Numbered from the stretch's first letter, positions 12,148-54,037 are shown. The stretch: DNA of 64,000 bases from Candidatus Entotheonellaceae bacterium (GCA_965238075.1 OZ250173.1:1856001-1920000), one strand, 5' to 3'. The notes: a model not told the origin generated them from the sequence alone. Numbers and translations are program-made.

Positions 12148-12149
12148 CC

Positions 12150-34865: not shown

Positions 34866-34866
34866 C

Positions 34867-36558
34867 ATGGAAAAACGAGCCATTCTGGCCATCGTAATGT
34901 CCTTGGTCGTGGTCGTTGCGTGGTCGCTTTTGTTTGCGCCTTCGACGCCGCCCCCAACGGAATTTGACGAGACCGTTCCGCCCAGTGCCCTTTCGCCCGA
35001 TACGCAGCTACCGCCGGGATCCATCCGCATTGCGGAACAGGAAACCCCGTCCGCTCCCGGCGAAGCCGTGAAGCGGACTGATTCTGATATTCAGGAGCGA
35101 CTCATCCAGATTGATACCGGTGTGGCGCTCGTCACCCTGACGAGCCGCGGCGCCGGGGTGCAGACGGTGCAGTTTCGCAATTACCACACGGGTCTTGACG
35201 ACGACGCGACGCCCATTGAGATTACCCCGGTGCGTGGTGCATCAACGGTGCCGCTGGCGGCCAACGTTGTGATGGACGGCACCCTGGCGATCCCGCTGGG
35301 CCGCCAGATCTTCGCGAGCGACAGTGAGGACGTGGTACTGTCCGACTACCGTACGGACGCCGAGGTCAGCTTTCATACCACTCTGGAAAACGGCGTCACC
35401 GTGCACCGTAATTATCGATTTACCCTCGGTCGATACGACTTTGAGGTAGGCACCTCGGTGCAGGGCTTGCCACCACGTGCCAGGAATGCCTTGCATCTGC
35501 AATGGGGACCCGGGCTTCTCGACCCCGGCGATGACGAGGTGCGCCGCGGCCAGACGGCCGCCCTGCCCCGGAGTTACGTGAGCGGCAAAATCTTCGACGC
35601 GGTCCCGGATGAAGACGGCGCCCCCGTCGTTGAGCAGGGATCGGTCTCGTGGGCTTCCCTCGGTGACACCTACTTTACCGCCGTCCTCATTCCCCGCGAG
35701 CCGCAAGCCGACGCCGTCATCGTCAGCAGTAGCCGGGAGGGGGCGCTGACTGTTGCCGTCCGTACCCCCCTGCACCCCGACAGGCCTCAGCAAATCGTGC
35801 AGGTGTATGTCGGGCCCAAGGAGAAGCCTCTACTGGAGGCCGTTGAGCCCTCGCTCGGCAAGGTCATTGATCTTGGCTTTTTCTCCCCCATGGCCCGGCC
35901 CATGCTGCAGCTTCTGCGTTTGGTCAACCGCTGGGTTCACAACTACGGCGTGTCTATCATTCTCGTCACGATCCTCATTAAAATCATCTTCTGGCCGCTG
36001 ACCCACAAAAGCTACAAGTCCATGAAGGCGATGCAGAAATTGCAACCTAGAATGAAGGAGTTACAGGCGCTTTACAAAGACGACAAGCAGGGTCTCAATC
36101 GCGCCACGATGCAGCTCTACCGCGACCAGAAGGTCAACCCGATGGGCGGCTGCCTGCCGATGATCCTGCAAATTCCCTTCTTCTTCGCTTTTTATAATGC
36201 CCTCCTGTATTCCATTGAATTGCGCCATGCCCCGTTTATTTGTTGGGAAAACGAAGTCCTTTGGGGCTTCCGCGGCATCTGCGACCTGTCGGTGTATGAC
36301 CCGTCGTACATCACCCCCGTGCTGATGGGCGCCACCATGTTCTGGCAGCAGAGCATGACACCCACCGTGGGCGACCCGACGCAGGCCAAGATCATGAAGT
36401 TCATGCCGCTGATGTTTCTGTTCTTTTTCCTGAACGCGCCGGCCGGTTTGGTGGTGTATTGGCTGTTCAACAACATGCTCAGTGTCGTGCAGCAGATGTT
36501 GACGAATCGTACCCGCGGGCTGGAAAAGACCAGCGCCGGGACCGTGAGCAAACGCTAG
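34867..36558 (+). CDS. yidC: membrane protein insertase YidC
   Basis: N-terminal TM, periplasmic domain, NYGVSII..LQP..NPMGGCLP..Q.P, ELRHAPF and PAGLVVYW. Confidence 0.96.
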   Translation: MEKRAILAIVMSLVVVVAWSLLFAPSTPPPTEFDETVPPSALSPDTQLPPGSIRIAEQETPSAPGEAVKRTDSDIQERLIQIDTGVALVTLTSRGAGVQTVQFRNYHTGLDDDATPIEITPVRGASTVPLAANVVMDGTLAIPLGRQIFASDSEDVVLSDYRTDAEVSFHTTLENGVTVHRNYRFTLGRYDFEVGTSVQGLPPRARNALHLQWGPGLLDPGDDEVRRGQTAALPRSYVSGKIFDAVPDEDGAPVVEQGSVSWASLGDTYFTAVLIPREPQADAVIVSSSREGALTVAVRTPLHPDRPQQIVQVYVGPKEKPLLEAVEPSLGKVIDLGFFSPMARPMLQLLRLVNRWVHNYGVSIILVTILIKIIFWPLTHKSYKSMKAMQKLQPRMKELQALYKDDKQGLNRATMQLYRDQKVNPMGGCLPMILQIPFFFAFYNALLYSIELRHAPFICWENEVLWGFRGICDLSVYDPSYITPVLMGATMFWQQSMTPTVGDPTQAKIMKFMPLMFLFFFLNAPAGLVVYWLFNNMLSVVQQMLTNRTRGLEKTSAGTVSKR

Positions 36559-36571
36559 GCGAGGCGGAGGC

Positions 36572-37960
36572 GTGGAAGCGTCCCGGCACGACACGATCGC
36601 CGCCATTGCTACGCCGTTAGGCGTGGGCGGGATCGGCGTGGTGCGCGTCAGTGGACCGGTCGCCGTCGCCGTGGCGCAGCGAGTATTCGTGCGGCCCAGC
36701 GGTTTGCCGCTGACACGTCTGCAATCGCACCGCGTCTATCATGGGTTCGTGGTTGATGAACAAGGTGAGCGGATCGACGAAGCGTTGCTCTGCGTCATGC
36801 GGCAGCCGCATTCCTACACGCGCGAGGACGTGGTGGAGATCAGTTGCCACGGTGGCGTGATGACCACGCAGCGCGTTCTGGAAACGGTTTTGGCGCCGGG
36901 CGTGCGGGTGGCCGAACCCGGCGAGTTTACGCGGCGGGCGTTCCTCAACGGGCGCCTCGACCTCACCCAGGCCGAGGCGGTCATCGACCTGATCAACGCC
37001 CGCACCCAGGCGAGCCATCGTGCCGCCATCAATCAACTCGACGGCGCCCTGTCCCGCCATCTCCGGGCGCTACGCGAGGAATTGATACAGGTCAGCGTCT
37101 ACCTGGAGGCGGGGATCGATTTTCCCGAAGAAGACTTGCAATTGGTCTCCGAGGCGGTCCTCTGCGAGCGATTACAGGCGGTGGCAACTCAGCTGGAAGC
37201 TCTCAGCGCCTCGTTTGCGCGTGGCCGCTTGCTGCGCGACGGCATGGCCGTCGCCGTCGTTGGCCGTCCCAACGTGGGAAAATCCAGCCTCCTGAACGCC
37301 CTGTTAGGTCGCGACCGCGCTATCGTGTCACCGCAGCCGGGCACAACGCGCGACACCATTGAAGAGGAATTGAGCATCGACGGCGTGCTGGTGCGCCTGA
37401 CGGACACCGCCGGCCTTCACACCGCGGCGGATTTGATCGAGCAGGAAGGCATGCGCCGGGCTCGCACCGTGGTTGAGCGTGCCGAATTGTTGATCGTCGT
37501 ACTCGACGGCAGCGTCACGCTGACCGCGGACGACCTTCTGGTGCTGGCCGAGACAGCGGAAGTACCGCGCCTGCTGGTACGCAACAAATGTGATCTGCCC
37601 ATGTCTTGGCCCGTCGCTGACTTGGCATTGTCGGGCGCGTTGGATCCCGTGCTTGACGTCTCGGCCTTGCGGCAACATGGCCTGCACGAACTTGAGCAGG
37701 CCATTGTGCGCCAAGCGCTGGGCAACGAGCCGCTGAGTCAGGATGAGGTGCTTCTGACCCGCGTCCGGCACCATCAGCGCATCATAAGCGCCCTGGAGAA
37801 CGTCCGCACGGCGCGGCACGGCCTGCAACACGAGATGCCGCTTGAGTGCGTGGCGCTCGACGTCGGCGAGGCGCTGCAGCACATCGCCGACGTGCTCGGG
37901 GAGAGCGTCGCGGGCGAGGTGCTGGACCGCATTTTCCATCAATTCTGCGTGGGCAAATGA
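36572..37960 (+). CDS. mnmE: tRNA modification GTPase MnmE/TrmE
   Basis: DTIAAIATP, GEFTRRAFLNG, GRPNVGKSS, GTTRD, DTAG, NKCD and FCVGK. Confidence 0.96.
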   Translation: MEASRHDTIAAIATPLGVGGIGVVRVSGPVAVAVAQRVFVRPSGLPLTRLQSHRVYHGFVVDEQGERIDEALLCVMRQPHSYTREDVVEISCHGGVMTTQRVLETVLAPGVRVAEPGEFTRRAFLNGRLDLTQAEAVIDLINARTQASHRAAINQLDGALSRHLRALREELIQVSVYLEAGIDFPEEDLQLVSEAVLCERLQAVATQLEALSASFARGRLLRDGMAVAVVGRPNVGKSSLLNALLGRDRAIVSPQPGTTRDTIEEELSIDGVLVRLTDTAGLHTAADLIEQEGMRRARTVVERAELLIVVLDGSVTLTADDLLVLAETAEVPRLLVRNKCDLPMSWPVADLALSGALDPVLDVSALRQHGLHELEQAIVRQALGNEPLSQDEVLLTRVRHHQRIISALENVRTARHGLQHEMPLECVALDVGEALQHIADVLGESVAGEVLDRIFHQFCVGK

Positions 37961-37980
37961 CCCTTGTTGAGGAGTAGGCC

Positions 37981-39909
37981 ATGCCTGTGGCATCAACAAC
38001 CCGTAGGTATGACGTGATCGTGGTGGGAGCCGGGCACGCCGGCTGCGAGGCTGCCCTGGCCGCGGCGCGCATGGGCTGCCGCACCGCCGTTTTTACCACC
38101 AACCTGGACAGCATCGCCCTGATGCCCTGCAACCCCGCCATCGGTGGCATCGCCAAAGGCCACTTGGTGCGCGAGATCGACGCCATGGGCGGCGAAATGG
38201 CCCGCTGCATCGACAAGACGGGCATCCAGTTTCGCGTTTTGAACCGCAGCAAGGGGCCTGCCGTGCGCGGCTACCGCGCTCAGGCCGACAAGCTGGGTTA
38301 CCGCCTGGAGATGAAAGCGCGGCTGGAGGCGCAAGACGGCCTGGACATCAAGCAGGCGCTGATCGAGCGCTTACTGGTCGAAGGCGACCGTGTCTGCGGC
38401 GTCGTCACCCAAATGGGCGAGACGTATCAGGCCCGAGCCATCGTGGTCAGCACCGGCACCTTTCTCGGCGGCGTCATTCACGTCGGCCTCAGGCAGTTTC
38501 CGGCCGGTCGCGCCGGGGAATTTCCGGCCAACGGGCTGTCGCAGGACTACGCCGACCACGGCTTTCCGCTGGGTCGCCTCAAAACCGGTACCTGCCCGCG
38601 CCTCAATGCCCGCACCATCGACTTTGACAGCCTGGAGGTGCAACCCGCCGACGACCCGCCGCCGCCGTTCTCATTCGACACCGAGGCGATTACCCAATCC
38701 CAATTGCCCTGCTATCTGACTTACACTAATGACCGCACGCACGACGTCATCCGGCAGAATCTCGACCGCTCGCCGCTGTACAGCGGCGTGATCATGGGTG
38801 TTGGGCCACGCTACTGCCCGTCGATCGAAGACAAGGTCAAACGCTTTCCCGACAAGACGCGGCACCAAATTTTCCTCGAACCCGAGGGCCGCGACACGGT
38901 GGAAATCTACCCGAACGGTATTTCCACCAGCCTGCCCGAAGATGTTCAGGTCGCCATGGTGCGCACGATTCGTGGGTTGGAAGAGGCCGAAGTCATGCGC
39001 CCGGGCTATGCGGTGGAGTACGACTTCGTGCCGCCCACCGAGCTGCGCCCGACCCTGGAAACCAAGCGTCTCGCCGGCCTCTACCACGCCGGGCAGATCA
39101 ACGGCACTACCGGCTACGAAGAGGCCGCGGCGCAGGGCCTGATGGCCGGCATCAACGCGGCGCTCCAGGTACGCGGGCGACCGCCGCTGGTCATCAAGCG
39201 CACCGAGGGATACGTCGGCGTCCTCATTGACGACCTGGTGACGCTGGGCACCAGCGAGCCCTACCGCATGTTTACCTCGCGCTCGGAGTACCGCCTCATC
39301 CTGCGGCAGGACAACGCCGATCTGCGGCTGCGCGACAAGGGCTATGCGGTGGGTTTGGTGCCCGAGGATACTTACCGACGCTTCTGCGACAAACGCCAGC
39401 ACATCGAAGCGGAGATTGGCCGGCTCGCCGCCTGCCGCGTGATGCCCCATGCCGGGGTCAACGACTTGCTGACGCGGCGCGGCACCGACGCGCTCAGCCA
39501 GCCGGCCTTGGCGTCGGAGTTGCTCAGGCGGCCGCAATTGACCTATACCGACGTGCTGCAACTGATGGGCGAGGCGCCCGAACTCGGCCCGGATGTGATC
39601 GAGCAGGTCGAGATCCACCTGAAGTACGAGGGCTACATTCGGCGGCAGCTCGAACAAGTCGCGCGCGTCGCGCAGCTCGAAGACATGCCGCTGCCGACCG
39701 ATTTCGATTACTGCCAAGTGCCCGGCCTGTCGCTTGAGATTCAGGAAAAGCTGCTGCACATCCGTCCGGCCTCGCTGGGACAAGCCGGGCGTATTTCCGG
39801 CGTCACGCCCGCCGCGGTGGCCATCCTCATGGTCTATTTTCAGAAGCACCGCACCTCGCATGCCCACCACCGATCAACGCCTCAGGAAGCGCCTCTGCCA
39901 GCAGTGTGA
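37981..39909 (+). CDS. mnmG: tRNA uridine modification enzyme MnmG/GidA
   Basis: [47 protein letters not shown] and EPYRMFTSR. Confidence 0.97.
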
Positions 39910-40589: not shown

Positions 40590-41108
40590 CTACAAAGAAC
40601 GATAAGGACGGTACGCTTCGTGTCCCGGGGCACGCAATTCGTCCCCGAGTTGGTTATAGGTGTAGTGGTACGGAGGCCCGTCGGCCTCAACCTCCACCCC
40701 CAATATCATCGGTATCCTCAACCTCTTGGCCTTTTCTTCATAAGGCAGAGATCCTTTGGCCGGGTCTATTATCCTGTCCCTTCTGTCGTACACAAAAAGG
40801 ACCGGTATCGGGGGATCAAGCCCCACCAATTCCTCCAGGTGGTCAAAAGGATCGTATTGACCCGGATGGTGTTTATATTTTCCGTAGAGTGGTGGTGCGG
40901 ACAAACCAACCGTCGCCACCAGGTGTTGCAATGGTGGGTGTTGGTAGATACTGGCCGCCACCAAGGACCCGCCACTGTGGCCATAGAGGTTAAAGAGTTC
41001 AAGAACTCATCGCTCAGATAGCGAAATAATACTCTCTGAGTCGGGATTTCGCCAGTGTCGGTAGTAGCCATGCGGTCTGTAGACCGCAATCGGATCCTCT
41101 TCCCGTTC
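40590..41108 (-). pseudogene. 3' half of a split alpha/beta hydrolase
   Basis: The frame upstream of the listed ORF reads LELFNLYGHSGGSLVAAS (nucleophile elbow), then IPVLFVYDRRD (acid) and APGHEA (His). Its 5' part duplicates 42658-42768. Confidence 0.65.
40996..41108. repeat. left copy of ~110 bp imperfect direct repeat flanking the IS3 element
   Basis: 41064-41108 is identical over 45 bp to 42724-42768. The remainder aligns with indels. Confidence 0.9.
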
Positions 41109-41113
41109 CCTCT

Positions 41114-42660
41114 TGCCAACTGACTGAGACACCGGGACCCCTCGGTTGAATTACTGTAGGGCGGTGGAGGTGAAAACCGATGACCGCAGAGAGAGACTCG
41201 ATGACATTGAATGAGATTCCCTATCCGTCCCTGGGGGTCGAGGAGCGTAGCGACGAGGCCCCCAGGGACGGCCGAGCCAGAGCGACGCCGGACCCGGAGG
41301 TCGTGGCCAAGCCGAAGCGGCGCCAGTTCACCGCGCAGTATCGGCTGCGGACCCTTGAGGAGGCCGATCGCTGCACACAGCCCGGCGAGGTTGGCCGCCT
41401 GCTTCGCCGCGAGGGGTTGTACAGCTCTCATCTGGCGACTTGGCGCAAGGCGCGGCGCAAGGGCTCGTTGCGGGAGTTGGCCTCGAAGAAGCGCGGCGCG
41501 AAACCGGCCGAACGCAACCCGTTGGATGCGAAGGTGCGCGTGCTCGAAGCGAAAGTGGCTCGCCTGGAACACGAGTTGCACACCGCGCACACGATCCTGG
41601 ACGTGCAGGGAAAAGTTGCCGGGCTGCTGGGATTGAACCTCGAACACGAAACGCGCTCCTGATGGCGGCCCAACCGCTGGCGGAGCAGGTCGGCGTCGTG
41701 CCGGCGTGCCAGGCGCTGGGCGTGTCGCGGGCGACTTTCTACCGTCGTCAGAGGTTAACTCCCGGGCACCAGCAGCCCCGTTCAACGCCCGCCCGGGCGC
41801 TGTGTGACTCCGAGCGCGAGCAGGTCCTCGATGTGCTCGCCTGTCCACGCTTCGTTGACCGTGCGCCGGCGGAGGTTGTGGCGACGCTGCTCGACGAAGG
41901 CCACTACCTGTGCTCGGAGCGTACGATGTATCGGATCCTGGCCACCAACCAGCCGGTCCGAGAAGGCGCAATCAGCGTGAGCATCCCCAGTACGCCAAAC
42001 CCGAACTGGTGGCCACGGCCCCGAACCAGACCTGGTCCTGGGATATCACCAAACTGCTGGGGCCGACGAAGTGGACGTACTTCTACCTCTACGTCGTGCT
42101 CGACATCTTCAGCCGCTACGCGGTCGGCTGGATGGTCGCCGACCGGGAGAACTCGGCGCTGGCCGCTTGTCTCATCGAAGAGACCTGCCACAAACAAGGC
42201 GTCCGGCCCCAGATCCTCACCTTGCACTCCGACCGCGGGGCGCCGATGACGAGCAAGTGCACCGCACAACTGCTCGCCGACCTCGGGGTCACGCGGTCGC
42301 TGAGCCGCCCCCAGGTGTCCGATGACAACCCGTTCTCCGAGGCGCAGTTCAAGACCCTGAAGTATCACCCAGGCTTCCCTGGGCGCTTTCACAACATCAC
42401 CGCCGCCATCGCCTTCTGTCGAACGTTCTTCCCTTGGTACAACACCGAGCATCGACATGGCGGCATTGCCATGCTCACCCCGGGCGACGTCCATCACCAT
42501 CGAACCCAGAGCGTGCTGCACCAGCGCCGGCGGACCCTTCAAGCCGCTTGGACCCGTCATCCCGAACGCTTCGTTCGAGGCATCCCAAAACCAGACCCCC
42601 TGCCCGAAGCGGTCTGGATCAATCCACCCGTGAGATCCACAACAGGAGAAACTGCTCAGT
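41114..42660 (+). mobile_element. defective IS3-family element
   Basis: Left end TGCCAACTGACTGAGACACCG, orfA 41180-41662 and orfB from ATG 41662 with DDE core (WSWDIT, LHSDRG, DDNPFSE). There is a -1 frameshift near 41960, and no right inverted repeat is seen. Confidence 0.88.
41180..41662 (+). CDS. IS3-family transposase OrfA
   Basis: PDPEV..KRRQFTAQYRL..LLRREGLYSSHL HTH plus a leucine-zipper-like C-terminus. Confidence 0.85.
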   Translation: MTAERDSMTLNEIPYPSLGVEERSDEAPRDGRARATPDPEVVAKPKRRQFTAQYRLRTLEEADRCTQPGEVGRLLRREGLYSSHLATWRKARRKGSLRELASKKRGAKPAERNPLDAKVRVLEAKVARLEHELHTAHTILDVQGKVAGLLGLNLEHETRS

Positions 42661-42686
42661 TCAATCCCGAACTCATCGCGAAATAA
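41662..42686 (+). pseudogene. IS3-family transposase OrfB, frameshifted
   Basis: The N-part (ACQALGVSRATFYR..CSERTMYRIL) and C-part (RRNQREHP..rve core) are in different frames. Confidence 0.85.
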
Positions 42687-42768
42687 TACTCTCAGATTTC
42701 ATCGTTAAACGTTCAGTGTCGGTGTAGCCATGCGGTCTGTAGACCGCAATCGGATCCTCTTCCCGTTC
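42658..42768. repeat. right copy of ~110 bp imperfect direct repeat
   Basis: Matches 40996-41108 and contains the palindrome TGCGGTCT-gt-AGACCGCA. Confidence 0.9.
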
Positions 42769-43140
42769 GATGAGTCTGGCGCTGCTTAAAAAACCGGCCA
42801 GAACTTCATCGTCATACTCCGCCCGACTTTCGTCGAGGTCGCCGTCCAAAAACAAACTGGCAACCGGCTCTTGACCGGACAGGACTCGGTCCGGCATCGC
42901 TAACATCAGGGGTGCGGGTATGTCCAGCGTGGTAAAAAATTGGACGATTTTGTAACCCGGCTCAGGTCCGTCACTGACTATCTGCCAGTTGACGATAGCC
43001 TGAGTGACCGCGTCACTGTCAGAGTTATCGTAAGATGATGACGATGCACCATCTCCACCACCACCACAACCCGTCAGGACACAGAGTCCGGTGGTGGCAG
43101 TGGCACCAAGCAAAAAGTTCCGACGAGTTAATCTCAACAC
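42673..43140 (-). pseudogene. 5' half of a Tat-exported lipoprotein (split hydrolase)
   Basis: RBS GGAAGGAG, twin-arginine TRRNFL, lipobox LTGC and a Gly/Ser linker. It ends inside the duplicated segment. Confidence 0.65.
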
Positions 43141-43181
43141 TGCAGTCTCCTTCCTGTGTGAACAGTGTGTAAAAAACTACC

Positions 43182-43705
43182 CACTGTACATGACAAAAGT
43201 CATTAAGTAGTTGAAAGACAAGGTGTAACCTCCTATGGCGGAAGGTCTCAAACCGATCTGCAACGACTCATGTCTCAGGGAGATTACACCCGTGAAGCAC
43301 TCTACCATGCTCGCCGACTTGCTCCAATCGACCTTTGCCTTACACCGCGCTCGCCTCACCTGCCTGGCCGCCATCGTCATCGCCTTGTTCAAGGTCAAAA
43401 TCGTCAATCTGGCACAACCCGGCACCGCCTTCCCAGGCGCCGCCGAGATCGGCTCGCACGGTCGGCGCCTGAAATGCTTCTTCAAACACGTCCAATTCCA
43501 ACCCGCTCGCATGGCTGAGTTCATCCTCGCTTTTCTACCCGATGCCCCCTACACCTTAGCCTTGGATCGAACCCAATGGATGCTTGGCAGGACACCGATC
43601 AACTTCCTCGTCTTGTTCGTCGTCCACGACGGCATTGCCTTTCCTCTTTTCTGGAAGGTTCTGGCGAAAAAGGGCAATTCCAATACCCAGGGGCGCATCT
43701 CGGTA
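43182..43705 (+). mobile_element. truncated IS4-family element (5' remnant)
   Basis: IR-like CACTGTACATGACAAAA at 43182. Transposase N-terminus RLTCL..VNLAQ..RRLKCFF..LALDRTQW..AFPLFW..KKGNSN, then the sequence is cut off. Confidence 0.75.
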
Positions 43706-43813
43706 GCGGCGGTGAAAACGGGGAGAAGAGAAAGATACTGAAAATAAAGGGGCCGGCAGCTCCCCACGCGCCGGATTCTTTCAACGTTTCCGTAGGCATA
43801 AGGAGGCTCACTT

Positions 43814-45307
43814 ATGACTGCATCTGTCACCGCTTCGATGCTCTACGATCTCGTGTCGTGTCCGCATCGGGTTGCTATGGATCTGTTCGCCGACCCCTCG
43901 GAGCGCGATGCGCCAAATCCATTCATCCAGCTCCTCTGGGAGAAAGGCTCGCTTTTCGAGAAACAGGTCATCGAAGGTCTGGAGGTGCCCTGCACCGATC
44001 TTTCCCTGGAAGCTGGCGACGAAAAGGAACGGCAGACGCTGGAGGCCATGCAGCGCGGCGATTTCATGATCTACAGCGGACGTATACAGGCTGTGGGCCT
44101 GCTCGGTGATCCGGATCTGTTGCGCAGAGAAGGTGACGGGTATATGGCTGGCGACATCAAGTCAGGTTCGGGGGAGGAAGGCCCAGAGGACCATTCAAGG
44201 CCCAAGAAGCACTACGCCGTACAGCTCGCCCTTTACACGGACATTTTGGAGCGCAAGGGCCTTTCCGCTGGCAGACGCGCCTTCGTCTGGGACATCAACG
44301 GGGAAGAAGTCGTCTACGACTTCGAGGAACTTCACGGCAAACGGAATCCGAGGACCCTCTGGCAAGACTACCAGGAGTGTCTCGGCGAAGCGAAATCAAT
44401 CGTTGATCAGGCCAGTAAGACCCTTGCTGCATACAGCAGTCTCTGCAAGCTTTGCCACTGGTACACCGCTTGCACGTCACGCCTGGTCGATGCGAACGAC
44501 CTGACGCTGATCCCCCAGTTGGGCCGCACCAGTCGCGACACCTTGATGAATCGGTTCCCGACCATCCTGTCTTTGGCCGAGTCCGATCCCGCCAACTTTG
44601 TCGTTGGTAAAAAGACTGCCTTTCCGGGGATCGGGCTTGCGACCCTGGAGAAGTTTCACGCCCGCGCGCAGCTCATCGCGGCAGGTGACAAGGCAAAGCC
44701 CTATCTCCGGGAGTCGATCACGCTGCCAGGGGCGGAGTTGGAACTCTTTTTCGATATCGAAGTCGACCCGATGCGCGACATTTGTTACCTGCACGGATTC
44801 GTTGAGCGGCGCCACCGCAACAACGAAACGGAGAGGTTCGTTGCCTTCTTTGCCGATGAACCCACTGCGGAAGCCGAACGGCAGGCCTTTGAGGAGGCGT
44901 GGTGCTACCTGCGGGAACGTCAGTCCTGCGTCATGTATTACTACTCGAAATACGAGCGGACCATCTACAGGAAACTCCGCGAGAAATACCCTGACGTGTG
45001 CACGGAGGAAGAACTGGAAGCGCTGTTCGACCCGGAGCGGTCGGTGGATCTTTATTACGACGTGGTACTCAAGGCCACCGAATGGCCGACGCGAGACTTT
45101 TCGATTAAGACGTTGGCGAGTTATCTGGGGTTTGCTTGGCGGGATCCGCATCCGTCTGGAGCGGCGTCAATTGAATGGTTTCACCGTTGGGTAGAAACGG
45201 GCGATGCAACGATTCGCCAACGAATTCTTGACTATAACGAAGACGATTGCCGGGCGACGCGCGTCCTGCGTGACGGGATTGATGGCCTTGCCTTGAAGCC
45301 GAGGTAA
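43814..45307 (+). CDS. TM0106-family RecB-like nuclease with C-terminal RNase H-like domain
   Basis: GDPDLL..GDIK..QLALY (PD-(D/E)xK), CKLCHWY..C, FFDIE, YSKYE, VDLY, SIKTLA and YNEDDC. RBS AGGAGG. Confidence 0.85.
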   Translation: MTASVTASMLYDLVSCPHRVAMDLFADPSERDAPNPFIQLLWEKGSLFEKQVIEGLEVPCTDLSLEAGDEKERQTLEAMQRGDFMIYSGRIQAVGLLGDPDLLRREGDGYMAGDIKSGSGEEGPEDHSRPKKHYAVQLALYTDILERKGLSAGRRAFVWDINGEEVVYDFEELHGKRNPRTLWQDYQECLGEAKSIVDQASKTLAAYSSLCKLCHWYTACTSRLVDANDLTLIPQLGRTSRDTLMNRFPTILSLAESDPANFVVGKKTAFPGIGLATLEKFHARAQLIAAGDKAKPYLRESITLPGAELELFFDIEVDPMRDICYLHGFVERRHRNNETERFVAFFADEPTAEAERQAFEEAWCYLRERQSCVMYYYSKYERTIYRKLREKYPDVCTEEELEALFDPERSVDLYYDVVLKATEWPTRDFSIKTLASYLGFAWRDPHPSGAASIEWFHRWVETGDATIRQRILDYNEDDCRATRVLRDGIDGLALKPR

Positions 45308-45424: not shown

Positions 45425-45459
45425 GAGGCCGTCCTGAGTATCGGGACGGCCTTTTTTTT
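45425..45459 (+). terminator. intrinsic terminator
   Basis: GAGGCCGTCCTGA-gta-TCGGGACGGCC followed by T8. Confidence 0.85.
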
Positions 45460-45548: not shown

Positions 45549-47447
45549 TCAGGCCAGACGCAGCACCAGATCTTCGGGAATCGGCAGGCGGGCGATTTGT
45601 CCGGGAAAGCCGAGTTCCTGGCGGATGACCTGAAAAAAAACGCTGTCGTGCACCTTCCGGCCTTGCAGACGACTGGCCAGCACGTCGGCGACGGCCAAGT
45701 CCCGACTGAACGTGACCAAGCCGGGGTGCGGTATGAGGTCGTAATTGCCCCACCGACTTCGGTATAGCCCGCGCCGGTTCCAGCGCACCGCGGCGTGCAG
45801 TCCTTCCACCATCCCATACATGTCGAATAGACAACCGTACAGCTTCGCCAGATCACAACAGACACGGGCAAAATGGGTCATGTTCGGACCGTGCCACGCC
45901 GTGCGCAGCACGTCCGGGATGAGGCCGAACAGATTGGCGACACTGAGGCGCGTCGGCCCCTTGAACCGTGCGAAGCTGAGGAACGGCGCGCCGCGGTGAG
46001 CCAACAGCGCTTCGGGTACATAGGCAGCCAGGGCGGGATGATGTAGCCGTACACCGGCCTCGCGCAAGATCGCCTCAATGCTTTCTTGCGGCGCGCACCG
46101 TCCGTCCCAGAAGGCTTCGGTGACATTCAGGTACTGTGCTTTGTGCTTCCGAATCACCTCTGCCAGGCCGGTGCGCCGCAGGTAGTCCGCCTCTTGCTCG
46201 GCAATCCAGGCGCGATGTTGCCGGCTGTGCTTGGCCCAATCCCATGTGGCGCCGCCGAGGTTGCGGCTCGACGTATGGCCCTCAAGGAGCACCGCCTGTC
46301 CGGGCAGGGCGCCGAGCAGCATGTCCAGGGCCACCGGGTCCGTGTACGTTCCCGGGGCGTAACCGTGCCACGTGACCTTGATGAAGACGTGCGTGGGGGA
46401 AGATGATTGCCGCAAGCGTCCGAAGAGACGGGCGAGTCCTTCCTGGTCGTAGACCTCGGCAACAAGGCCGGTGCCGTAGCACAGGTTGGCGTCCAATGGC
46501 TCGGTCAGGTCGGTGAGCGGGCAGCTTGTCTGGGGGCCGCGTAGACGGCTGACCTGTGGGCTGCGGCGCTGTTTGGCGGATGGTTCCTTGACGGCGAATT
46601 TGTCGCGTCTTTCTTGCCAGAGCCGCAGGATACGTTGCGCGAGCCATGTCAGTAGCCCAGGCGTGGCCCGGTCTCGGTCTGACGGCAGGGCAATGCTCCC
46701 GACAGGCTCCGTCGTCATCCAGGTGCGTGCGGCCGGCACCGTGCGGCTGAACTCGTCGCAGCTCGTTCGTACCTCGTCGTCGTGTGCATTGCGCCACGCC
46801 GCCTGTGGCACGATGACCCACGTCAGGTGTTCCCGCGTACAGCGTTCAAGCTGTTCCCGCAGCGAGGGCCGGGCATGGCGGCAAAATCCCACCTCGCCCC
46901 GCGCGCAACCGACTTGTTCCCATAGCAGGCGCATCAACCGGTAGCTTTGTGACCGTCCGGCGCCGGCGCCGTCACCGCTGGCGGCGAGCAGCAGGCCCAC
47001 CTGCTCGGGCTTGAGGGGCGAGCCCGCGAGCTGTTGGTACACGCGCTCCGCCCAGGCCTCGACCAACAAGGGGTGACAGGGGTCCACGTCGTCGTAGGCG
47101 ATCGTCGTCTGGGGAAATTGCTGCCGTACGCTTGCGGTAATTTCGGCCAGTTGTGCTTTTTGCACGAGGCCAAAATCAAGCATGGTGGGAATCAGGAAGA
47201 TATCGCCCCTGCGGGCTGCCGCCTCGTGGGCCAGGACCGTTGCCAGGTCGAAACGCAGCGCGGCTGACGGCTTGTCGGGCGCGCGCAGGAGGTGAGACGC
47301 GGGTGGCAGGCAGGCCAGACGGATACGCGGCGCAAAGCCGAGTTGCGGCGCCAACGGCTCCGTCAGCGCCTCGGCTTGCGCCAGGGCGGTCGGCCAGTCG
47401 GGGTGATACGCCGTCAACTCGGTGACGAGTATGAATGAGGGAGGCAT
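45549..47447 (-). CDS. CbiX/SirB-like chelatase-fold + DUF362-like fusion protein
   Basis: The N-half resembles the two-domain CbiX fold (IFLIP..RQQFP..HPLL..ERV; LLLAASG..RLLWEQ..EVGF..PSL..VIVP). The C-half resembles DUF362 (VFIK..TYTDP..EG..YLNV..LSVANLFGLIP..H). It is the last gene of the guanidine operon. Confidence 0.6.
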   Translation of the reverse strand: MPPSFILVTELTAYHPDWPTALAQAEALTEPLAPQLGFAPRIRLACLPPASHLLRAPDKPSAALRFDLATVLAHEAAARRGDIFLIPTMLDFGLVQKAQLAEITASVRQQFPQTTIAYDDVDPCHPLLVEAWAERVYQQLAGSPLKPEQVGLLLAASGDGAGAGRSQSYRLMRLLWEQVGCARGEVGFCRHARPSLREQLERCTREHLTWVIVPQAAWRNAHDDEVRTSCDEFSRTVPAARTWMTTEPVGSIALPSDRDRATPGLLTWLAQRILRLWQERRDKFAVKEPSAKQRRSPQVSRLRGPQTSCPLTDLTEPLDANLCYGTGLVAEVYDQEGLARLFGRLRQSSSPTHVFIKVTWHGYAPGTYTDPVALDMLLGALPGQAVLLEGHTSSRNLGGATWDWAKHSRQHRAWIAEQEADYLRRTGLAEVIRKHKAQYLNVTEAFWDGRCAPQESIEAILREAGVRLHHPALAAYVPEALLAHRGAPFLSFARFKGPTRLSVANLFGLIPDVLRTAWHGPNMTHFARVCCDLAKLYGCLFDMYGMVEGLHAAVRWNRRGLYRSRWGNYDLIPHPGLVTFSRDLAVADVLASRLQGRKVHDSVFFQVIRQELGFPGQIARLPIPEDLVLRLA

Positions 47448-47467
47448 TGTCAGGCCACCATGCGTCC

Positions 47468-48595
47468 TTACGCCGCGCCTGCCTTGGGCAAGTGGCCGGC
47501 GCGGACCAGGCAACCGAGCGTGTCACAAATCACGCGGCAGGCCATCAGAGAGGTGATCTCGGCGTTGTCGTACGGCGGTGCACACTCGACGACTTCCATG
47601 CCGGCGAAGCCCTCGGCGGCTATCAGGTGGATGAATTTCAACACCTCTCGCGGCAGAAAACCACCCGGCTCCGGCCATCCCGTGCCGGGAACAAACGCCG
47701 CGTCGAGACAGTCGATATCGAACGACAGCCACACCGCATCGGCCCCGTCCCATGCTACCTCAAGGGCGCGTTCCGCAGCTTTCTCGATTCCCATCTCGAC
47801 GCAGTCCGTGACGGTCATGATCGTTGTGCCGCGTTCCCGTGACACCTTGACCCCGGCGCGCGGCGCCTGCCAGCCGCCAATACCGATCTGCACCAGGTTT
47901 TTGGCCGGCACGTTGGGCAGGTTGGTGGCATGAAACCACGGCGTGGTGTGCATGCGTTCGTCGAGGTCCGTGTCTTGCGTGTCGACATGGCGGTCGAAGT
48001 GGATGATTCCAAGGTTGCCGCCGCCCAGATGCTCGGCGATTGCTCGTGTGGTGGGATAACCCAGCGAGTGATCGCCGCCGAGCACCACCGGAAAAGCGCC
48101 CGAAGCAAAGACGTGTCCCACGGCCTTGCTCACCTGGTCGAAGGTCTTTTCGATATTGGCGGGGATGGTGAAAATATCGCCCAGGTCGCACATGGTGATC
48201 GATTCACGCAGGTCGACGCCGAGCTCGAAGCTGTAGGAGCCGTACAGGGCGGATATTTTGCGGATGCCCTGCGGTCCGAAGCGGGCGCCGGCCCGGTACG
48301 TGGTGCCGCCGTCGAAGGGCGCCCCAACAATCGCTACGTCGTAGTTGCCGCATTGCCGCACGTCCTCAAGGAAATGTTGCTTGAGGAAGGTGTTGATGCC
48401 GGCGAAATGCGGTAATTCCCCGCGGCTGAACGTGGGTATTGACCGGTCCACGACCGAATCGGCCGCCGGCAATCCCACCTCGAGCCGCCAGGCGATTTCC
48501 TGCTCGTATTTCGTTTGCGGCAGCGCAGCTTCCGCCTCGACGGCGTAACGCGCCTCCGGACCGTGCCGCGACTGCGGTGTGGCATCCTCAGGCAT
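47468..48595 (-). CDS. gdmH: guanidine hydrolase (GdmH-like, ureohydrolase family)
   Basis: N-terminal extension DRSIPTFSRGELPHFAGINTF, GTTYR, GGDHS, HFDRHVDTQ..DERMH, SFDIDCLD and PGTGWPEPGG. It closely matches my recollection of Synechocystis Sll1077 rather than canonical agmatinase. Confidence 0.85.
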   Translation of the reverse strand: MPEDATPQSRHGPEARYAVEAEAALPQTKYEQEIAWRLEVGLPAADSVVDRSIPTFSRGELPHFAGINTFLKQHFLEDVRQCGNYDVAIVGAPFDGGTTYRAGARFGPQGIRKISALYGSYSFELGVDLRESITMCDLGDIFTIPANIEKTFDQVSKAVGHVFASGAFPVVLGGDHSLGYPTTRAIAEHLGGGNLGIIHFDRHVDTQDTDLDERMHTTPWFHATNLPNVPAKNLVQIGIGGWQAPRAGVKVSRERGTTIMTVTDCVEMGIEKAAERALEVAWDGADAVWLSFDIDCLDAAFVPGTGWPEPGGFLPREVLKFIHLIAAEGFAGMEVVECAPPYDNAEITSLMACRVICDTLGCLVRAGHLPKAGAA

Positions 48596-48631
48596 TCCTG
48601 TTCTCCTCGCTCCCAACGTGTATATCTTGTA

Positions 48632-49537
48632 TCACAACGCCTCATCACCAACGTACGTCATGCGAAAAATCGGCAAGGGCATGTCCCGGGCTTCTCCCGG
48701 CGGATGAATAAGTTCCTCCAAGCGCTGCTTGGTGGCAAAGAACGCCGGCGCCAGCAGGTGCTCGGGGCGACGCGGCCGCGGCACGGGCACCTCGATGATC
48801 TCCTTGATCGAACCGGGATTACGCCCCAGCACGACAATCCGGTCGGCCAGGTAGGTGGCTTCGTCAAGATCGTGGGTGATAAACAGAACGGTGATATTGA
48901 CGTTACGCCAGATCTGCAACAGATAACCCTGCATCTGCGCCCTGGTCTGCGCATCGAGGGCCCCGAAGGGTTCGTCCATGAGCAGAACGCGCGGCTCGTT
49001 GGCGAGGGCGCGGGCAATGGCCACGCGCTGCTGCATACCGCCCGAGAGTTGGTGTGGATAGTGGTCGATAAAGTCAGCCAGCCCCACCATGTCGATCCAC
49101 TGTCTGGCGGTTGCCTCGGCGTGCTGCGAGCTGCAGCCGGTCATGCGCAGTCCGAACATGACGTTCTTTTTCACCGTCAGCCACGGGAACAGGGTATAGC
49201 TCTGAAACACCATGCCGCGCTCTGGGCCCGGCTCCCGCACTGCTTCGCCATCCAGCAGGACCGTGCCGGCCGTCGGGGATTCCAGGCCGGCAATGATCCG
49301 GTTCAGGGTCGACTTGCCGCAGCCGGAGGGACCGATGACACAGATGAATTCGCGGCGGTGGATCTGGAAGGTGATGTCCCGGAGCGCCACCACGTCCTCG
49401 CCCTGGCTGCCGATAAAGGTCTTGTCGAGTCCCTGGACGTGCAGAATCACCGGGCGCTGCCGGATGCGGCCAAAACGCTCGCGCACCGCCGGCTCCATGT
49501 CCGTATAGCTGGGAAGTTCAAGAGGCAGCGCCATCAA
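48632..49537 (-). CDS. NitT/TauT-family ABC transporter ATP-binding protein
   Basis: [38 protein letters not shown] and ITHDLDEA. Confidence 0.93.
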
Positions 49538-50600
49538 CAGACCTCGCCTCCCGGGTGGGAGATGCGGGAACGGCGGCCGGCACCCGTCTACGGACCGCGG
49601 CGCCGAGCGTTCGAGAGAGGGTCGTCAGAAAGCCTGGGGCCCCTTGCCGCTGCGCCGGAAACATCTGGCGTCCGAACAGCCGCAGGATCTGATCGGTGCC
49701 GATCCCAAGCAGGCCGATGCTCACGATGCCGGCATAGACCCGCTCGAAATTGAAATAGCGCCCCTGCTGCTGGATATACGCCGTGATGCCGCTCTTTTCA
49801 CCGATGAGCTCCGCCACGATGAGGTACGTCCAGGCCCAGCCGAGCAGGATGCGCATGTCGATATACAGCCTGGGCAGCACACCGGGAATCACCACGTGCG
49901 TCACCAGCCGCCAGCGCCTGGCGCCGAGGGTCTGGGCGGCTTCCAGGAGCGCGGTGTCGGTCTGCCGCGTGGTGTTGGCCAGCACCAGCACCATCTGGAA
50001 GAAGGTGCCGATAAAGATGATGGCGACTTTCGGGGCTTCCTGGGTGCCGAGAATGGCGACCATCAGCGTGCCGAAGGCTGGCGCCGGCATGTAGCGAATG
50101 AAGTCGATAACCGGTTCGTTGAGCTTCGAGAACAGGGCGAACGTGCCGCACAGGACGCCCAGCGGCACGCCCAGGAGGCTCGCCCACACAAAACCCCAGA
50201 AGATAACCCGCAGGCTTTCGTAGATCCGTTGGTGGAACCATTTGTCGGTTATCCGGTTGCGCGGCGGTGTGGTGAAGACCGTGTACAGGGCGTGCAAGAC
50301 CTCATGGGGTGCCGGCAGGAACACGGGGTTGGCCGGCTGGCCCACGGCCGGCGTCTTGCCGTCTTGTAACGCCCGGGCATTCATCCGCTCCACCATCGGC
50401 GGGTCGTACCGTTTGCCCTCCAGCAGGACGGTGTCGTGAGACGCAAGGATCAAAACCTTGGGGTGCCAGACGAACGGCAGATAACTGACCGCGCACCACA
50501 CGCCGCAGGGCAGCAGGAACGCCAGGATGCTCAGCGCCAAGGCACGGCGTGGCGCGAACTCGCGTCGGACCGCCAGCCAGGGTGTTGGCGCGTGCTGCAT
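49518..50600 (-). CDS. NitT/TauT-family ABC transporter permease
   Basis: [23 protein letters not shown] (EAA loop) and WTYLIVAEL. Confidence 0.92.
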
Positions 50601-50601
50601 G

Positions 50602-51633
50602 CTACTTCTGCTTCAGGGTAAAGGTGAGGCTCGGGTCGAAGTAGCTATCCCCGGTCTCCGCCTGCGGATAGACGCCGTACTTGACGTTGAAGGTGTCGAC
50701 GTAGGCGTTCGAGCCCTTGAGGGATTTCAGCCCCGCCGATTCGTCGGCCTGCCAGACGGACAGGGCCTCGTCGAGCGACAGGATGCGCGTGCCGGCCAGA
50801 AACGGGGCGTATTCGTCGGGCGGCAGCCCGACGCGGGCACTGAGTATTTCGAGCATCTCCTCGCGGTTGGCCGGGTCCTCCATGAACGCCACGATGCGAT
50901 ACCACACCCGCACCACTTTGGCCCAGTCGCCGCCTCTTTCTGACAGGCTTTCGTGCGACACGTACAGCATATCGTAGATGATGCCGGGACTGTCCGCGCT
51001 GGAGTACAGCCGCTTCGAGCCGGGAACGATCTTGAGCGCCTGGCCCGAGTTCGGCTGCCAGGCGGTGATGGCGTCGACGCTGCCGGCTGCCAGCGCCTGG
51101 GGCAGTTCATTCGTTGGGATATTCACCAGCGTGACGTCGTTTTCGGTCATGCCGTGGGCTTCGAGGGCCGTCAGCAGCAGCAGGTGCCCGACAAAGCCGA
51201 CCTCAACGCCGACCTTTTTGCCTTTCAGGTCCGTGATCGAATCAATGCCGGGTTGGCCAACGACCATATCATTGCCGTTGGAATAGTCGTTCAGAATAAT
51301 GGCGGTTGACGGCTTGCCTGAAGCCGCCCCTATGACCAGGGCGTCGCCGTTCGTCATGCAGACGGCATCAGCCTGGCCGGCGGCGAAGGCATCCATGCCC
51401 GCTACGTAGTCCATCCACAACAACTCCACCGCGACGCCTTCCTGAGCGAAAAAGTCCTTCTGTCTGGCAATCTCCCAAGTCACCCAGCCGGGCCAGTCGC
51501 TGTAGATGAGTTTCAACGCTGGGCGATCCTCAGCTACGGCATGAGCGCCCCAGCCGGGCAGCAGGATCAAGCCCAGTAGACATAGACACAGTATCTGCCG
51601 CTTCATAGTCGCGTATGCCATGCGTTTTTCCAC
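50602..51633 (-). CDS. ABC substrate-binding protein (NMT1/urea-guanidine type)
   Basis: Signal peptide, [22 protein letters not shown] and AWQP. GTG start follows AAGGAG. Confidence 0.9.
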
Positions 51634-51738
51634 CTTCTTCGCTCCTTTGTAGACTGTGCACCGCGAGGCGGGAAACCCGACAGGCAACACGGATTGCGCC
51701 TGTATGCCTCCCGCACGAGCCCCTGTGTCACTTGATGA

Positions 51739-51773
51739 AGCAAATTAGGTGCCAAAGAGCAAACGGGATGCCA
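51739..51773 (-). promoter_or_regulatory. two tandem sigma54 (-24/-12) promoter motifs
   Basis: On the minus strand, TGGCAT-cccgt-TTGCT (51773-51758) and TGGCAC-ctaat-TTGCT (51754-51739). Confidence 0.75.
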
Positions 51774-52069
51774 AATTCGCAAAGTCGCTGCCCGATCGGC
51801 TCGACATCCGGGACCTGTTGCCGAATGATCATCACGACTTGCAACGGGTTGGCGCTTTGACACGATCAAGTCTTTCGGCAGAGCCGGGCCGGGACCGGGG
51901 AAGAGAGCAATTCCACAAGAACGGCTTGTATCATAACATTTACGTAGGAAAGTCCACATTAAGGTTAAAATTATGCGTTCTGCCGGAGCAATCTCACGCA
52001 GACAAGCTTGCACGCCGCAAGCCTTGGCGGTCATACTGGCCGCAAATTGTCAGAAAAGGAGTTGTTCAG

Positions 52070-52927
52070 ATGTCGTTACCGGCTGCACAGGATAGGGAAG
52101 GAATGCTGTCGTTGGAGACGCCGTTCGAGGCGTTGCCGCTGGTTTGTGTGGATGTCGAGACCACTGGGTTGACGCCGGACAAGGGCGCCCGTGTTTGCGA
52201 GATTGCCTTGCTGCGCAGCGCGGGGGAGCGGGAAGTGGCGCGCTTCGAGTCGCTGGTGCATCCGCAGCAGCCGATACCGCCGGAGGTGATCGCCGTGCAC
52301 GGCATTACCGACGCCATGGTCGCCGAGGCGCCTGCCTTCACGGCCCTGCTGCCGGATATCCGTGACCTGCTGCAGGGCGCCGTCGTCGTTGGCCACAACG
52401 TGCACTTCGACCTGCGCTTCCTGCGCCACGAGTGGCGCATCGCCGGCGACGCGCTGCCGGAATGTGTCGCTATCGACACGCTTTCCTTGGCGCGTACGTA
52501 TTTCGACTTCTCCCGCAACGGCCTCGGCGCCATCGCCGCCGCCCTGGGCATCGCCCATACCGCCGCGCACCGCGCCATGGGCGACGTGCTGGCCACTTGG
52601 AACGTCCTGCAGCATTTTGTCGCGGAATTGCGCCGTCGTGGGCCGGTGACCCTGGCCGATCTGATCCTGCCGCGCGTGCCTGACGCCGCCGGCGTCGGCA
52701 TCCGCGACATGGTAACCGCCCTGCAAGACGCCCTGCCTCAGAGTGCCCCCCTGTGCATGCGCTATCGTGCTTGGCACGCCCCCGAAACCGTCCGCGTCGT
52801 GCAGCCCCTCAGCGTCTACTTCCAACGCGGTTACGGTTTCCTTCATGCCTTCTGCCACCTCCGCCGCGAGGAGCGGCACTTCCGCCTGGATCGTATCCTC
52901 GAGCTCAGCCCATTAGGTGACGAGTAG
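52070..52927 (+). CDS. DEDDh 3'-5' exonuclease fused to C-terminal WYL domain
   Basis: VDVETTG, GHNVHFD and AHRAMGD; C-terminal MRY..TVRVVQP..FLHAFCHLRREERHFRLDRI. RBS AAGGGAG. Confidence 0.85.
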   Translation: MSLPAAQDREGMLSLETPFEALPLVCVDVETTGLTPDKGARVCEIALLRSAGEREVARFESLVHPQQPIPPEVIAVHGITDAMVAEAPAFTALLPDIRDLLQGAVVVGHNVHFDLRFLRHEWRIAGDALPECVAIDTLSLARTYFDFSRNGLGAIAAALGIAHTAAHRAMGDVLATWNVLQHFVAELRRRGPVTLADLILPRVPDAAGVGIRDMVTALQDALPQSAPLCMRYRAWHAPETVRVVQPLSVYFQRGYGFLHAFCHLRREERHFRLDRILELSPLGDE

Positions 52928-54037
52928 GGGAATCTTGCCCGTTTGGATGCGCTGCTCCACGTCGGCGCTGCACGCGGGTGCGTGGCCGAAGGTCTGCTGC
53001 CAGAGGGTCTGCGTTTCCATGCACAGATAGAGCGGTGCGTCGGGCGCGTAGCGGCGAATCCAGCCCCACATCTTCGCGTACATCTCGGCACGGAGCGGCC
53101 TGAAATAGCGGATTTTGCCGTCGTCGGAGGGAAACAGCTCGGCGGTCATCAATCGGCTCTTGGGAAAACGCGTCCGCACCACGTCCTTGAGGTCCGGGGT
53201 GAAGCGCAGGCTGCCCAAGCTCATCGTGGTGACGGCCCGCGGGTCAACGGCCTGGAAGACCTGCTTCACAAAGGGCTCGTACACGTCTTCCCAGCCGCGG
53301 AAGTGCAAGAGAGGGTCGAAATGCAGGCCGATCTTGTAACCCGCCTCAAGGCAGCGCTGGGCCGCTCGCAGGCGCGCCGCCAGCGGGGCCGTCTTGTGCT
53401 CTTCGCGCTGCACCACGGACTGCGGATTGATGGACCACGACACCATCACCCGCCCTTGGGGTTCCACGTCCAGCAGGCCCTCGATCAGGTCGCTTTTGGT
53501 CTTCAGCTCGAACAGCACGTTGGGAAACTGGCGGATGAACGGCACCAGCAGCCCCGAAAAGCCGGTCAGCGGGTCGAGCGACAGGCTATCGCTGAACTCC
53601 CCTGAGCCCATGCGCACCAGCTGGTGCGGCCGGGCGCGCAGAAATGCCGTGACTTCCTCGAACAGCCGGTCGATGTTGGTGTACACGGTCAGGTAGGGCG
53701 TATTGATATAGCTTTGCAGGTAGCAGTAGGTGCAGTCGTAGTTGCAGTTGGACACCGTATCGACGATGACGTACCCGCAGCATAGCCGACCGTCGGTATT
53801 GCGGCTGCTGGCGCCAGGGCAGTCGCGCACGAAACGGCCCTTCTGCGCGGTGAGATACAGGTGCTTCTTGGCCAGGGTCATCAACGCCGCCTGATCCGAC
53901 GGCGCCGGCAACGGCGGCGGCCCGTCGATCACGTCCATTGGCACCGCGGCCAGTTGGCGCACCACATTGGCGGTGATCGGGCTGTCCACAACCTGCCTGT
54001 CGATCCACACGTGCTGCGGTCGGTAAACACGAGACAT
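52913..54037 (-). CDS. spore photoproduct lyase-like radical SAM protein
   Basis: CPG..CCGY, NCNYDCTYCYLQ, GEFSDSL, ELKTKS, SWSINP, HFDP and YLCME. Confidence 0.85.
   Translation of the reverse strand: MSRVYRPQHVWIDRQVVDSPITANVVRQLAAVPMDVIDGPPPLPAPSDQAALMTLAKKHLYLTAQKGRFVRDCPGASSRNTDGRLCCGYVIVDTVSNCNYDCTYCYLQSYINTPYLTVYTNIDRLFEEVTAFLRARPHQLVRMGSGEFSDSLSLDPLTGFSGLLVPFIRQFPNVLFELKTKSDLIEGLLDVEPQGRVMVSWSINPQSVVQREEHKTAPLAARLRAAQRCLEAGYKIGLHFDPLLHFRGWEDVYEPFVKQVFQAVDPRAVTTMSLGSLRFTPDLKDVVRTRFPKSRLMTAELFPSDDGKIRYFRPLRAEMYAKMWGWIRRYAPDAPLYLCMETQTLWQQTFGHAPACSADVEQRIQTGKIPLLVT

Follow-up and report, generated by a model that had tools for sequence, protein, structure and literature searches.

What is the role of a protein that is encoded directly behind a guanidine hydrolase, where Synechocystis carries its HypA/HypB-type maturases? 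The question is raised by a stretch of DNA from Candidatus Entotheonellaceae bacterium (GCA_965238075.1 OZ250173.1:1856001-1920000), analysed over its whole length of 64,000 nucleotides and referred to here as the window, with positions counted from its first nucleotide. The window contains an operon in which a guanidine hydrolase gene of the gdmH type is followed by a gene encoding a 632-residue protein, here named the partner, which joins a chelatase-like half to a DUF362-like half. In almost all loci where the partner gene was located it lies immediately behind gdmH, and no gene for HypA or HypB was found beside the pair. This arrangement suggests that the partner may serve GdmH, possibly at its metal centre.

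The guanidine operon

The operon is located on the minus strand (45549-51690) and contains five tightly spaced genes, which are best explained as a guanidine import and hydrolysis operon made up of a GimABC-like ABC transporter, GdmH and the partner. The first gene encodes an ABC substrate-binding protein (SBP) that carries a signal peptide and is of the NitT/TauT (NMT1/SsuA-like) type (50602-51633, minus strand; Pfam NMT1 1.7e-20 and NMT1_2 3.7e-14). Its longest open reading frame (ORF) spans 50602-51690, and the probable start is an in-frame GTG at 51633 with an AAGGAG 8 nt upstream. The top NCBIfam match, TIGR03427 "putative urea ABC transporter SBP" (1.9e-45), is under the cut-off, and the protein is likely the guanidine-binding subunit, counterpart of GimA/Sll1080 in the Synechocystis guanidine importer gimABC (described in PMC12704784). 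It is followed on the same strand by the genes of an ABC transporter permease (49518-50600; Pfam BPD_transp_1 1.3e-23, best NCBIfam match TauC-like and below cut-off) and an ABC transporter ATPase (48632-49537; Pfam ABC_tran 2e-35), and then by those of the hydrolase, a member of the arginase family (47468-48616), and the partner, whose ORF runs from an ATG at 47447 to a stop at 45549. The gap between the gdmH stop codon (TAA, 47470-47468) and the ATG of the partner is exactly 20 nt. Furthermore, none of the 53 ORFs called across the window has a Pfam match to the HypA, HypB or urease families. A preliminary description of the locus, made from the sequence alone, had read it as a set of substrate-binding protein, permease and ATPase, a GdmH-like hydrolase and, 20 bp downstream, a fusion of about 630 residues, with no hypA or hypB in the operon; the ORF, Pfam, NCBIfam and PDB matches and the measured spacing agree with it throughout.

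The hydrolase matches the Pfam Arginase family (PF00491) with an E value of 5.4e-79 across profile positions 2-278 of 280, and an internal Met at residue 8 is a possible true start. Compared with PDB sequences, it is closest to 9FEK (E 1.2e-209, 699 bits), which is the guanidinase of N. inopinata (PMC11410670), and then to the Synechocystis GdmH structures 7ESR/7OI1 (E 2.9e-169, 566 bits), whereas the next-best ureohydrolase gives an E value of 4e-50 and at most 174 bits; it also scores under the NCBIfam agmatinase cut-offs. Two residues of Synechocystis GdmH, Thr97 and Trp305, are reported to set guanidine specificity (PMC11410670). Their equivalents in the window are T106 (GTTYR) and W314 (GTGW), and both positions are invariant in 50 of 50 GdmH homologues from partner-encoding loci. 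The alignment of these homologues shows that H183, D208, H210, D212, D300 and D302 are invariant too, and from the arginase-family motifs GGDHS, DxHxD and DxDxxD we take these six to be the ligands of the dinuclear metal centre. Since the matches to the two guanidinases stand far above those to other ureohydrolases and the specificity and metal-site residues are kept, the window hydrolase is identified by its sequence as a GdmH-type guanidinase and not as an agmatinase.

A guanidine riboswitch was also looked for. No Rfam match reached the gathering score in the window, nothing relevant was found at E <= 10 in 51400-52000, and none was detected in eight of the 77 partner loci described below, picked to cover eight lineages.

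Linkage of gdmH and the partner gene across genomes

A scan of contigs with one genome per species gave 77 partner loci. Of these, 71 have a gdmH homologue, with 55-99% identity, immediately upstream in the same orientation. The distance between the aligned gdmH and partner segments is 15-350 nt in 69 of these 71 loci, and 410 and 515 nt in the other two, where only a gdmH fragment aligned. Six loci show no adjacent gdmH: two are contig ends (L015 and L060), one is a deletion remnant (L067) and the others are L021, L043 and L064. In L067, which belongs to Latescibacterota, an ORF of 943 residues (7079-9910, plus strand) joins an SBP part to a permease part and only the C-terminal half of the partner matches (8001-8906), gdmH and the N-terminal half being missing, so that it represents either a deletion remnant or an assembly error.

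The 77 loci are distributed among Acidobacteriota (19), Planctomycetota (19), Myxococcota (16), Latescibacterota (nine), Verrucomicrobiota (five), Tectimicrobiota (three), Poribacteria (three) and Binatota (one), and two are unclassified; none belongs to Cyanobacteriota or Nitrospirota. One of them (L044) is from Singulisphaera acidiphila DSM 18658, a cultured source of the partner. The window comes from a genome close to Candidatus Entotheonella / Tectimicrobiota, the nearest partner sequence being 93% identical to that of the window on the tree alignment. In the partner tree, sequences of one phylum fall together, with seven label changes for eight groups, which is the smallest possible number. 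Because the loci span eight phyla and the partner tree follows phylum, the pairing of gdmH and partner is read from the sequences as old and maintained.

The surroundings of the pair are variable. Genes found repeatedly near the pair are those of ABC transporters (21-24 loci), an OprB porin (12 loci) and urease (5-6 loci); 289 further neighbour ORFs fall in clusters found in fewer than four loci, and nothing else is constant around the pair. At some loci a urea transporter (PF03253) or a sodium:solute symporter, and not an ABC system, is found after the partner (L005:9416-10375, plus strand, and about 9.7-11.3 kb in L020 and L064), and transport modules around the pair therefore appear to be exchangeable.

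Chaperone genes were searched among neighbour ORFs of at least 90 residues within 3.5 kb of the partner, using representatives of the 20 recurrent clusters and 282 of the 289 other ORFs (seven of at least 969 residues were dropped). No HypA or HypB was found among these scanned neighbours in any of the 77 loci, and the sole cobW-family match is UreG, which is located alongside ureD and ureF. The preliminary description had proposed to test whether the fusion co-occurs with gdmH and anti-correlates with hypAB; the first is seen in the 71 loci with gdmH directly upstream, and on the second, the neighbours scanned within 3.5 kb include no hypA or hypB. In one Planctomycetota-like metagenome-assembled genome, a LarC-type "Ni_insertion" gene (PF01969, E 1e-88) is located about 0.9 kb downstream of the pair (L056:10725-11450, plus strand); since neither the window nor any of the other 76 loci has an equivalent gene, it is regarded as a coincidence.

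The presence of gdmH upstream in nearly every locus, together with the lack of hypA and hypB nearby, therefore suggests that the partner is functionally tied to GdmH, in a position of the GhaA/GhaB type.

Domains and possible roles of the partner protein

The family of the partner includes at least 733 full-length homologues, which are named "hypothetical", "sirohydrochlorin ferrochelatase" or CbiX protein where they are named. Shorter forms with only the C-terminal half exist, some on long contigs, and may be true split genes or frameshifts. The full-length AlphaFold2 (AF2) model, based on an alignment of 78 sequences, has a predicted local distance difference test score (pLDDT) of 84.8 and a predicted template modelling score (pTM) of 0.73 and shows two domains.

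The first domain, residues 1-260 (46668-47447, minus strand), matches Pfam CbiX above the cut-off (30.7 bits, E 4e-7). A single-sequence search with the partner found no PDB match at E <= 1, and the family profile matched only SirB (E 0.004), over residues 60-258. Foldseek placed SirB first (5ZTA, 5ZT7 and 6JV6; E 3e-7 to 2e-6, TMt 0.73-0.78), with DR2241, ferrochelatases, CbiK and CbiX next, and the leading matches include SirB with Ni, Co and Fe bound. In the model this half, up to about residue 260, thus has the two-lobed class II chelatase fold. We take the catalytic and metal-binding His pair of SirB to be His10 and His76, matched through the chain offset. The position aligned with His10 is E10 in the window partner and D or E in 75 of 78 family sequences, and that aligned with His76 is L94, occupied by L, V, M or I in all 78. 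Furthermore, no GHGS is present, and residues 90-96 read LDFGLVQ. In the AF2 model, residues 261-340 (46428-46667, minus strand) comprise a long helix, a linker of low confidence (287-296) and a small unit of beta structure; they are the least conserved part of the protein, with a mean identity to the window of 0.37 among 62 distant sequences.

Residues 341-632, which with the stop codon correspond to 45549-46427 (minus strand), form a divergent DUF362-like domain. Tested directly over residues 321-632, it scores 13.6 bits against Pfam DUF362 (PF04015), with an E value of 0.07 and a cut-off of 24 bits. A profile of this half matched 232 representatives in 1.84 billion proteins, namely the fusions and, as a second tier, standalone proteins with lengths of about 300-350 residues, the latter at E 1e-57 to 1e-27. 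Of 25 standalone relatives 24 match PF04015, many of them above the cut-off, the best with 65.4 bits. In addition, all 30 named matches of an Atlas search are DUF362 clusters (top score 0.94), and when DUF362 was excluded only the partner's own family was left (0.75). Transitively, through these relatives and clusters, the C-terminal half is assigned to DUF362 as a divergent member. To our knowledge, DUF362 has no known function and no reaction is known for any member. Folded alone (residues 321-632), this half reached a pLDDT of 91.5 and a pTM of 0.91; Foldseek gave no PDB match at E <= 1e-3 (best E 0.024, TM at most 0.27), and no LarA structure is among the 50 matches listed.

The C-terminal half is the most conserved part of the partner, with 63% mean identity among the 62 distant sequences versus 43% for the N-terminal half. 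It carries the motifs KVTWHG (357-362), LEGH (388-391) and AWHGP (517-521), and its invariant residues include H361, E389, H391, E444, H519, C531, E548, D570 and D588, as well as the polar or charged R395, N396, Y562, R563, S564 and R565. Five residues, H361, H391, C451, C530 and C531, are fully or almost fully conserved in the gdmH-linked clade and lacking in its standalone DUF362-like relatives; the extra invariant features of this clade are WHG, EGH, C451, VCCD and an RSRWGNYD loop. Residues 362-367 (46347-46364) and 553-573 (45729-45791) have a pLDDT below 50 in the full-length model and are confidently placed once the C-terminal half is folded alone. They sit in the highly conserved motifs WHGYAPGT and RWNRRGLYRSRWGNYDL, and may be mobile loops that belong to an interface or an active site. 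The domain reading of the preliminary description, a chelatase-like half without the usual His ligands and a DUF362-like half with WHG, EGH and WHGP motifs, is thus borne out for the first half by Pfam, the PDB profile search and Foldseek, and for the motifs by their positions; its DUF362 call stands through the standalone relatives and the Atlas clusters, while the direct Pfam score stays below the cut-off.

Given this gene pairing and domain content, the partner may be an accessory or maturation factor of GdmH, in the operon position of Synechocystis GhaA/GhaB, a reading to which we give an even chance. It is favoured by the adjacency across eight phyla, the otherwise variable surroundings, the lack of Hyp genes nearby and the precedent of chaperones in related systems: activation of the metformin and dimethylguanidine hydrolases MefH and DmgH depended on co-expressed HypA/HypB (PMC11399263), and Hyp-type maturases are described as required for activation of Ni-dependent ureohydrolases (PMC11399263, PMC12186494). 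A non-orthologous displacement of ghaAB by the partner is the simplest reading. The partner and GdmH would then act together, the partner building or maintaining the dinuclear metal centre of GdmH by delivering, selecting or inserting nickel, and standing in functionally for the HypA/HypB-type maturases GhaA and GhaB. A role at the metal centre is suggested by the metal-handling chelatase fold of the N-terminal half and the clade-specific Cys and His residues of the C-terminal half. Of these, H361, H391, C451 and C530-C531 would be the candidate metal ligands, and the degenerate chelatase-like half could be a docking or secondary binding module. Because the partner lacks a P-loop, insertion of nickel by it would be independent of nucleotide hydrolysis, unlike that by HypB or UreG. 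Taken one step further, the partner might found a class of nucleotide-independent metal-centre maturases for Ni-ureohydrolases, composed of a class II chelatase module that has lost catalysis and a DUF362 module in which the clade-specific Cys and His residues carry nickel; we put this forward tentatively, as somewhat improbable on the present sequence comparisons.

Several observations weigh against a metal-centre factor. Both equivalents of the SirB catalytic His are missing from the chelatase half, and only 34 of the 78 family members have the His of the C-lobe GHG motif, the window reading GDG, with Asp. A Walker A motif (P-loop) is found in only one of the 78, no run of three or more His is present and no HypA or HypB/cobW domain was matched in Pfam or NCBIfam; lacking P-loop and His-rich tract, the partner therefore resembles no known nickel chaperone. 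Nine residues of the C-terminal half (K357, T369, E389, P478, K496, F507, G508, H519 and D588) are common to standalone DUF362-like proteins, which suggests that a catalytic or ligand site was inherited that is not necessarily related to nickel, and an active site would be an equally good explanation of the conserved DUF362 core. Furthermore, patristic distances in the GdmH and partner trees correlate moderately (r = 0.45, 1431 pairs), and L021, L043 and L064 hold the partner with other neighbours in place of an adjacent gdmH. Finally, comammox Nitrospira have a close GdmH, yet no Nitrospirota are among the 77 loci, and the partner is therefore not universally needed.

Some of these points would also fit a partner that is itself an enzyme of guanidine metabolism, its DUF362-like half acting before or after GdmH, for example in the release of free guanidine from a guanidino compound or in the processing of a product or side-product; adjacency would then reflect a shared pathway and not enzyme maturation. 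The preliminary description had named metal delivery or maturation and an enzyme converting a guanidine derivative side by side, and the present data agree with both. The strong conservation of the C-terminal half, the nine residues held in common with standalone proteins and the absence of chaperone hallmarks fit such a role, as do the many invariant polar or charged residues (R395, N396, E444, Y562, R563, S564, R565 and D570), which look more like an active site than a carrier surface, and the conserved loops 362-367 and 553-573, whose low confidence in the full-length model is often seen in substrate lids. However, the GimABC-like transporter and the specificity residues of GdmH are those expected for free guanidine, so that no upstream step is needed, and the product urea is handled by urease, which is encoded beside the pair in several loci. 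In addition, no DUF362 protein offers a reaction as a model, and a one-to-one pairing immediately downstream, kept in eight phyla while the surroundings vary, would be more usual for a subunit or a maturase than for a pathway neighbour. An enzymatic role is rather unlikely, although it is the strongest of the alternatives.

The same tight pairing would be expected of a non-catalytic structural or regulatory subunit of GdmH, comparable to the second subunit of heteromeric metformin hydrolase, which is inactive but required. Such a subunit might stabilise the hexamer or gate the enzyme through a small molecule bound in the chelatase-like cleft. A chelatase domain that keeps its fold and has lost its catalytic His agrees with this, the lack of a guanidine riboswitch in the window and in the eight loci makes another layer of control plausible, and heteromeric Ni-ureohydrolases exist (PMC11399263). 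On the other hand, the GdmH of Synechocystis and of N. inopinata are described as active without such a subunit (PMC11410670), and neither the 150 best profile matches nor, as weaker evidence, the proteins longer than 1106 residues showed a fusion of GdmH with the partner. The invariant Cys and His set of the C-terminal half would also be left unexplained, and we consider a purely structural or regulatory subunit quite improbable. That the adjacency is incidental and the partner serves an unrelated role such as tetrapyrrole metabolism, as the naming of some homologues as sirohydrochlorin ferrochelatase or CbiX protein and the Pfam CbiX score above cut-off might suggest, is very improbable in view of gdmH lying directly upstream in nearly all loci of eight phyla, the missing SirB catalytic His and the single TP_methylase, in one locus, as the only tetrapyrrole gene among all scanned neighbours.

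If the maturase-class reading is true, DUF362 would gain its first function and guanidinases would be matched with two unrelated maturation systems, the HypA/HypB type in cyanobacteria and the partner in at least eight other phyla. A maturase of this kind would add a new type to the proteins that handle nickel, and could make the recombinant guanidinases used in cyanobacterial ethylene and guanidine biotechnology more active, whereas an enzyme would extend the guanidine pathway. The partner is conserved and unnamed, and its gene comes immediately after gdmH in lineages from soil and freshwater and in sponge symbionts. Guanidine hydrolase was discovered recently, and the partner is a concrete candidate for the nickel-loading gap outside cyanobacteria named in PMC11410670.

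Other features of the window and comparison with known systems

The neighbours of the operon are a divergent exonuclease-WYL gene (51749-52927, plus strand) and a convergent PD-(D/E)XK/RNase H-like gene (43814-45307, plus strand). The former encodes a DEDDh exonuclease-WYL fusion and shows the same placement in the closest Entotheonella relative (L003:2413-3438). Between the convergent ends of the operon and its plus-strand neighbour there is a GC-rich 13-bp hairpin (45425-45453) with a T tail on the plus strand only, which is likely a terminator. An integrase-core (rve) ORF, likely of an insertion sequence, is found some 3 kb beyond the 3' end of the operon (41910-42686, plus strand), with several ORFs without any family around it (40769-43741). 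On the other side, a spore-photoproduct-lyase-like radical SAM gene is located at 52913-54037 (minus strand). We know of no report that this lineage forms spores.

Further away, the window contains two genes of the DnaA family (3608-5092, plus strand, and 32822-34024, minus strand). The second heads a dnaA-dnaN-recF-gyrB-gyrA run on the minus strand (the genes behind dnaA at 25347-32688), opposite an rnpA-yidC-mnmE-mnmG run on the plus strand (34151-39909), and GC content drops to 0.52 at 32-34 kb. The chromosomal replication origin therefore probably lies within the window. A cluster on the plus strand (10972-18694) encodes NurA, an unknown ORF, HerA (DUF87/HAS-barrel), a Mre11-like phosphoesterase and a Rad50/SbcC-like protein, that is, an archaeal-style end-resection module within a bacterial genome. 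A large signal recognition particle (SRP) RNA gene and five tRNA genes are located at 23856-25260 (minus strand), clustered with a tRNA-adenosine-deaminase-like gene (24391-24924).

In the literature searched, we found no description of the partner protein nor of any non-Hyp accessory protein for guanidinases, and titles and abstract openings of work on DUF362 show no link to guanidine. The available text of a 2025 review (PMC12186494) mentions only the Ni-delivery proteins of Synechocystis, and CbiX, sirohydrochlorin, hypA and hypB are absent from supplementary files 1-12 of the 15 that accompany PMC11410670.

Among known systems, the class II chelatases CbiX and SirB, where the preliminary description also placed the Ni-chelatase CfbA, have the two-lobed alpha/beta fold of the N-terminal half. 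The partner differs from them in its replaced catalytic His, in the lack of a tetrapyrrole gene context and in its fusion to a domain of 300 residues that the chelatases lack. The C-terminal half has nine invariant residues in common with standalone DUF362 proteins but scores below the Pfam cut-off and has extra invariant residues of its own. At a greater distance, DUF362 (PF04015) belongs to the same Pfam clan, CL0471, as DUF2088, the N-terminal domain of LarA (PMC11770544).

The comammox Nitrospira guanidinase locus consists, as far as it is described in PMC11410670, of a riboswitch, an APC permease and the guanidinase, with no HypA/HypB-type genes, and the Ni loading of its enzyme is called unclear in the same work. 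The window resembles it in its GdmH, which is closest to the N. inopinata enzyme (9FEK), and in the lack of HypA/HypB-type genes, and differs in having an ABC transporter, no detected riboswitch and the partner gene.

The closest parallel in gene order is Synechocystis, where gdmH, ghaA and ghaB form one transcript with ghaAB downstream (PMC12704784). GhaA and GhaB (HypA2/HypB-type), like the window partner, are encoded directly downstream of gdmH; however, neither they nor the HypA/HypB of the metformin and dimethylguanidine hydrolases show sequence or domain kinship to the partner, which is a single chain of 632 residues with chelatase-like and DUF362-like domains, without a P-loop GTPase or a His-rich tract. 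Part for part, the window operon corresponds to the Synechocystis locus, the one difference being the partner in place of ghaAB: a Ni-ureohydrolase operon with an accessory gene is known, but here the accessory part is not related to the one described.

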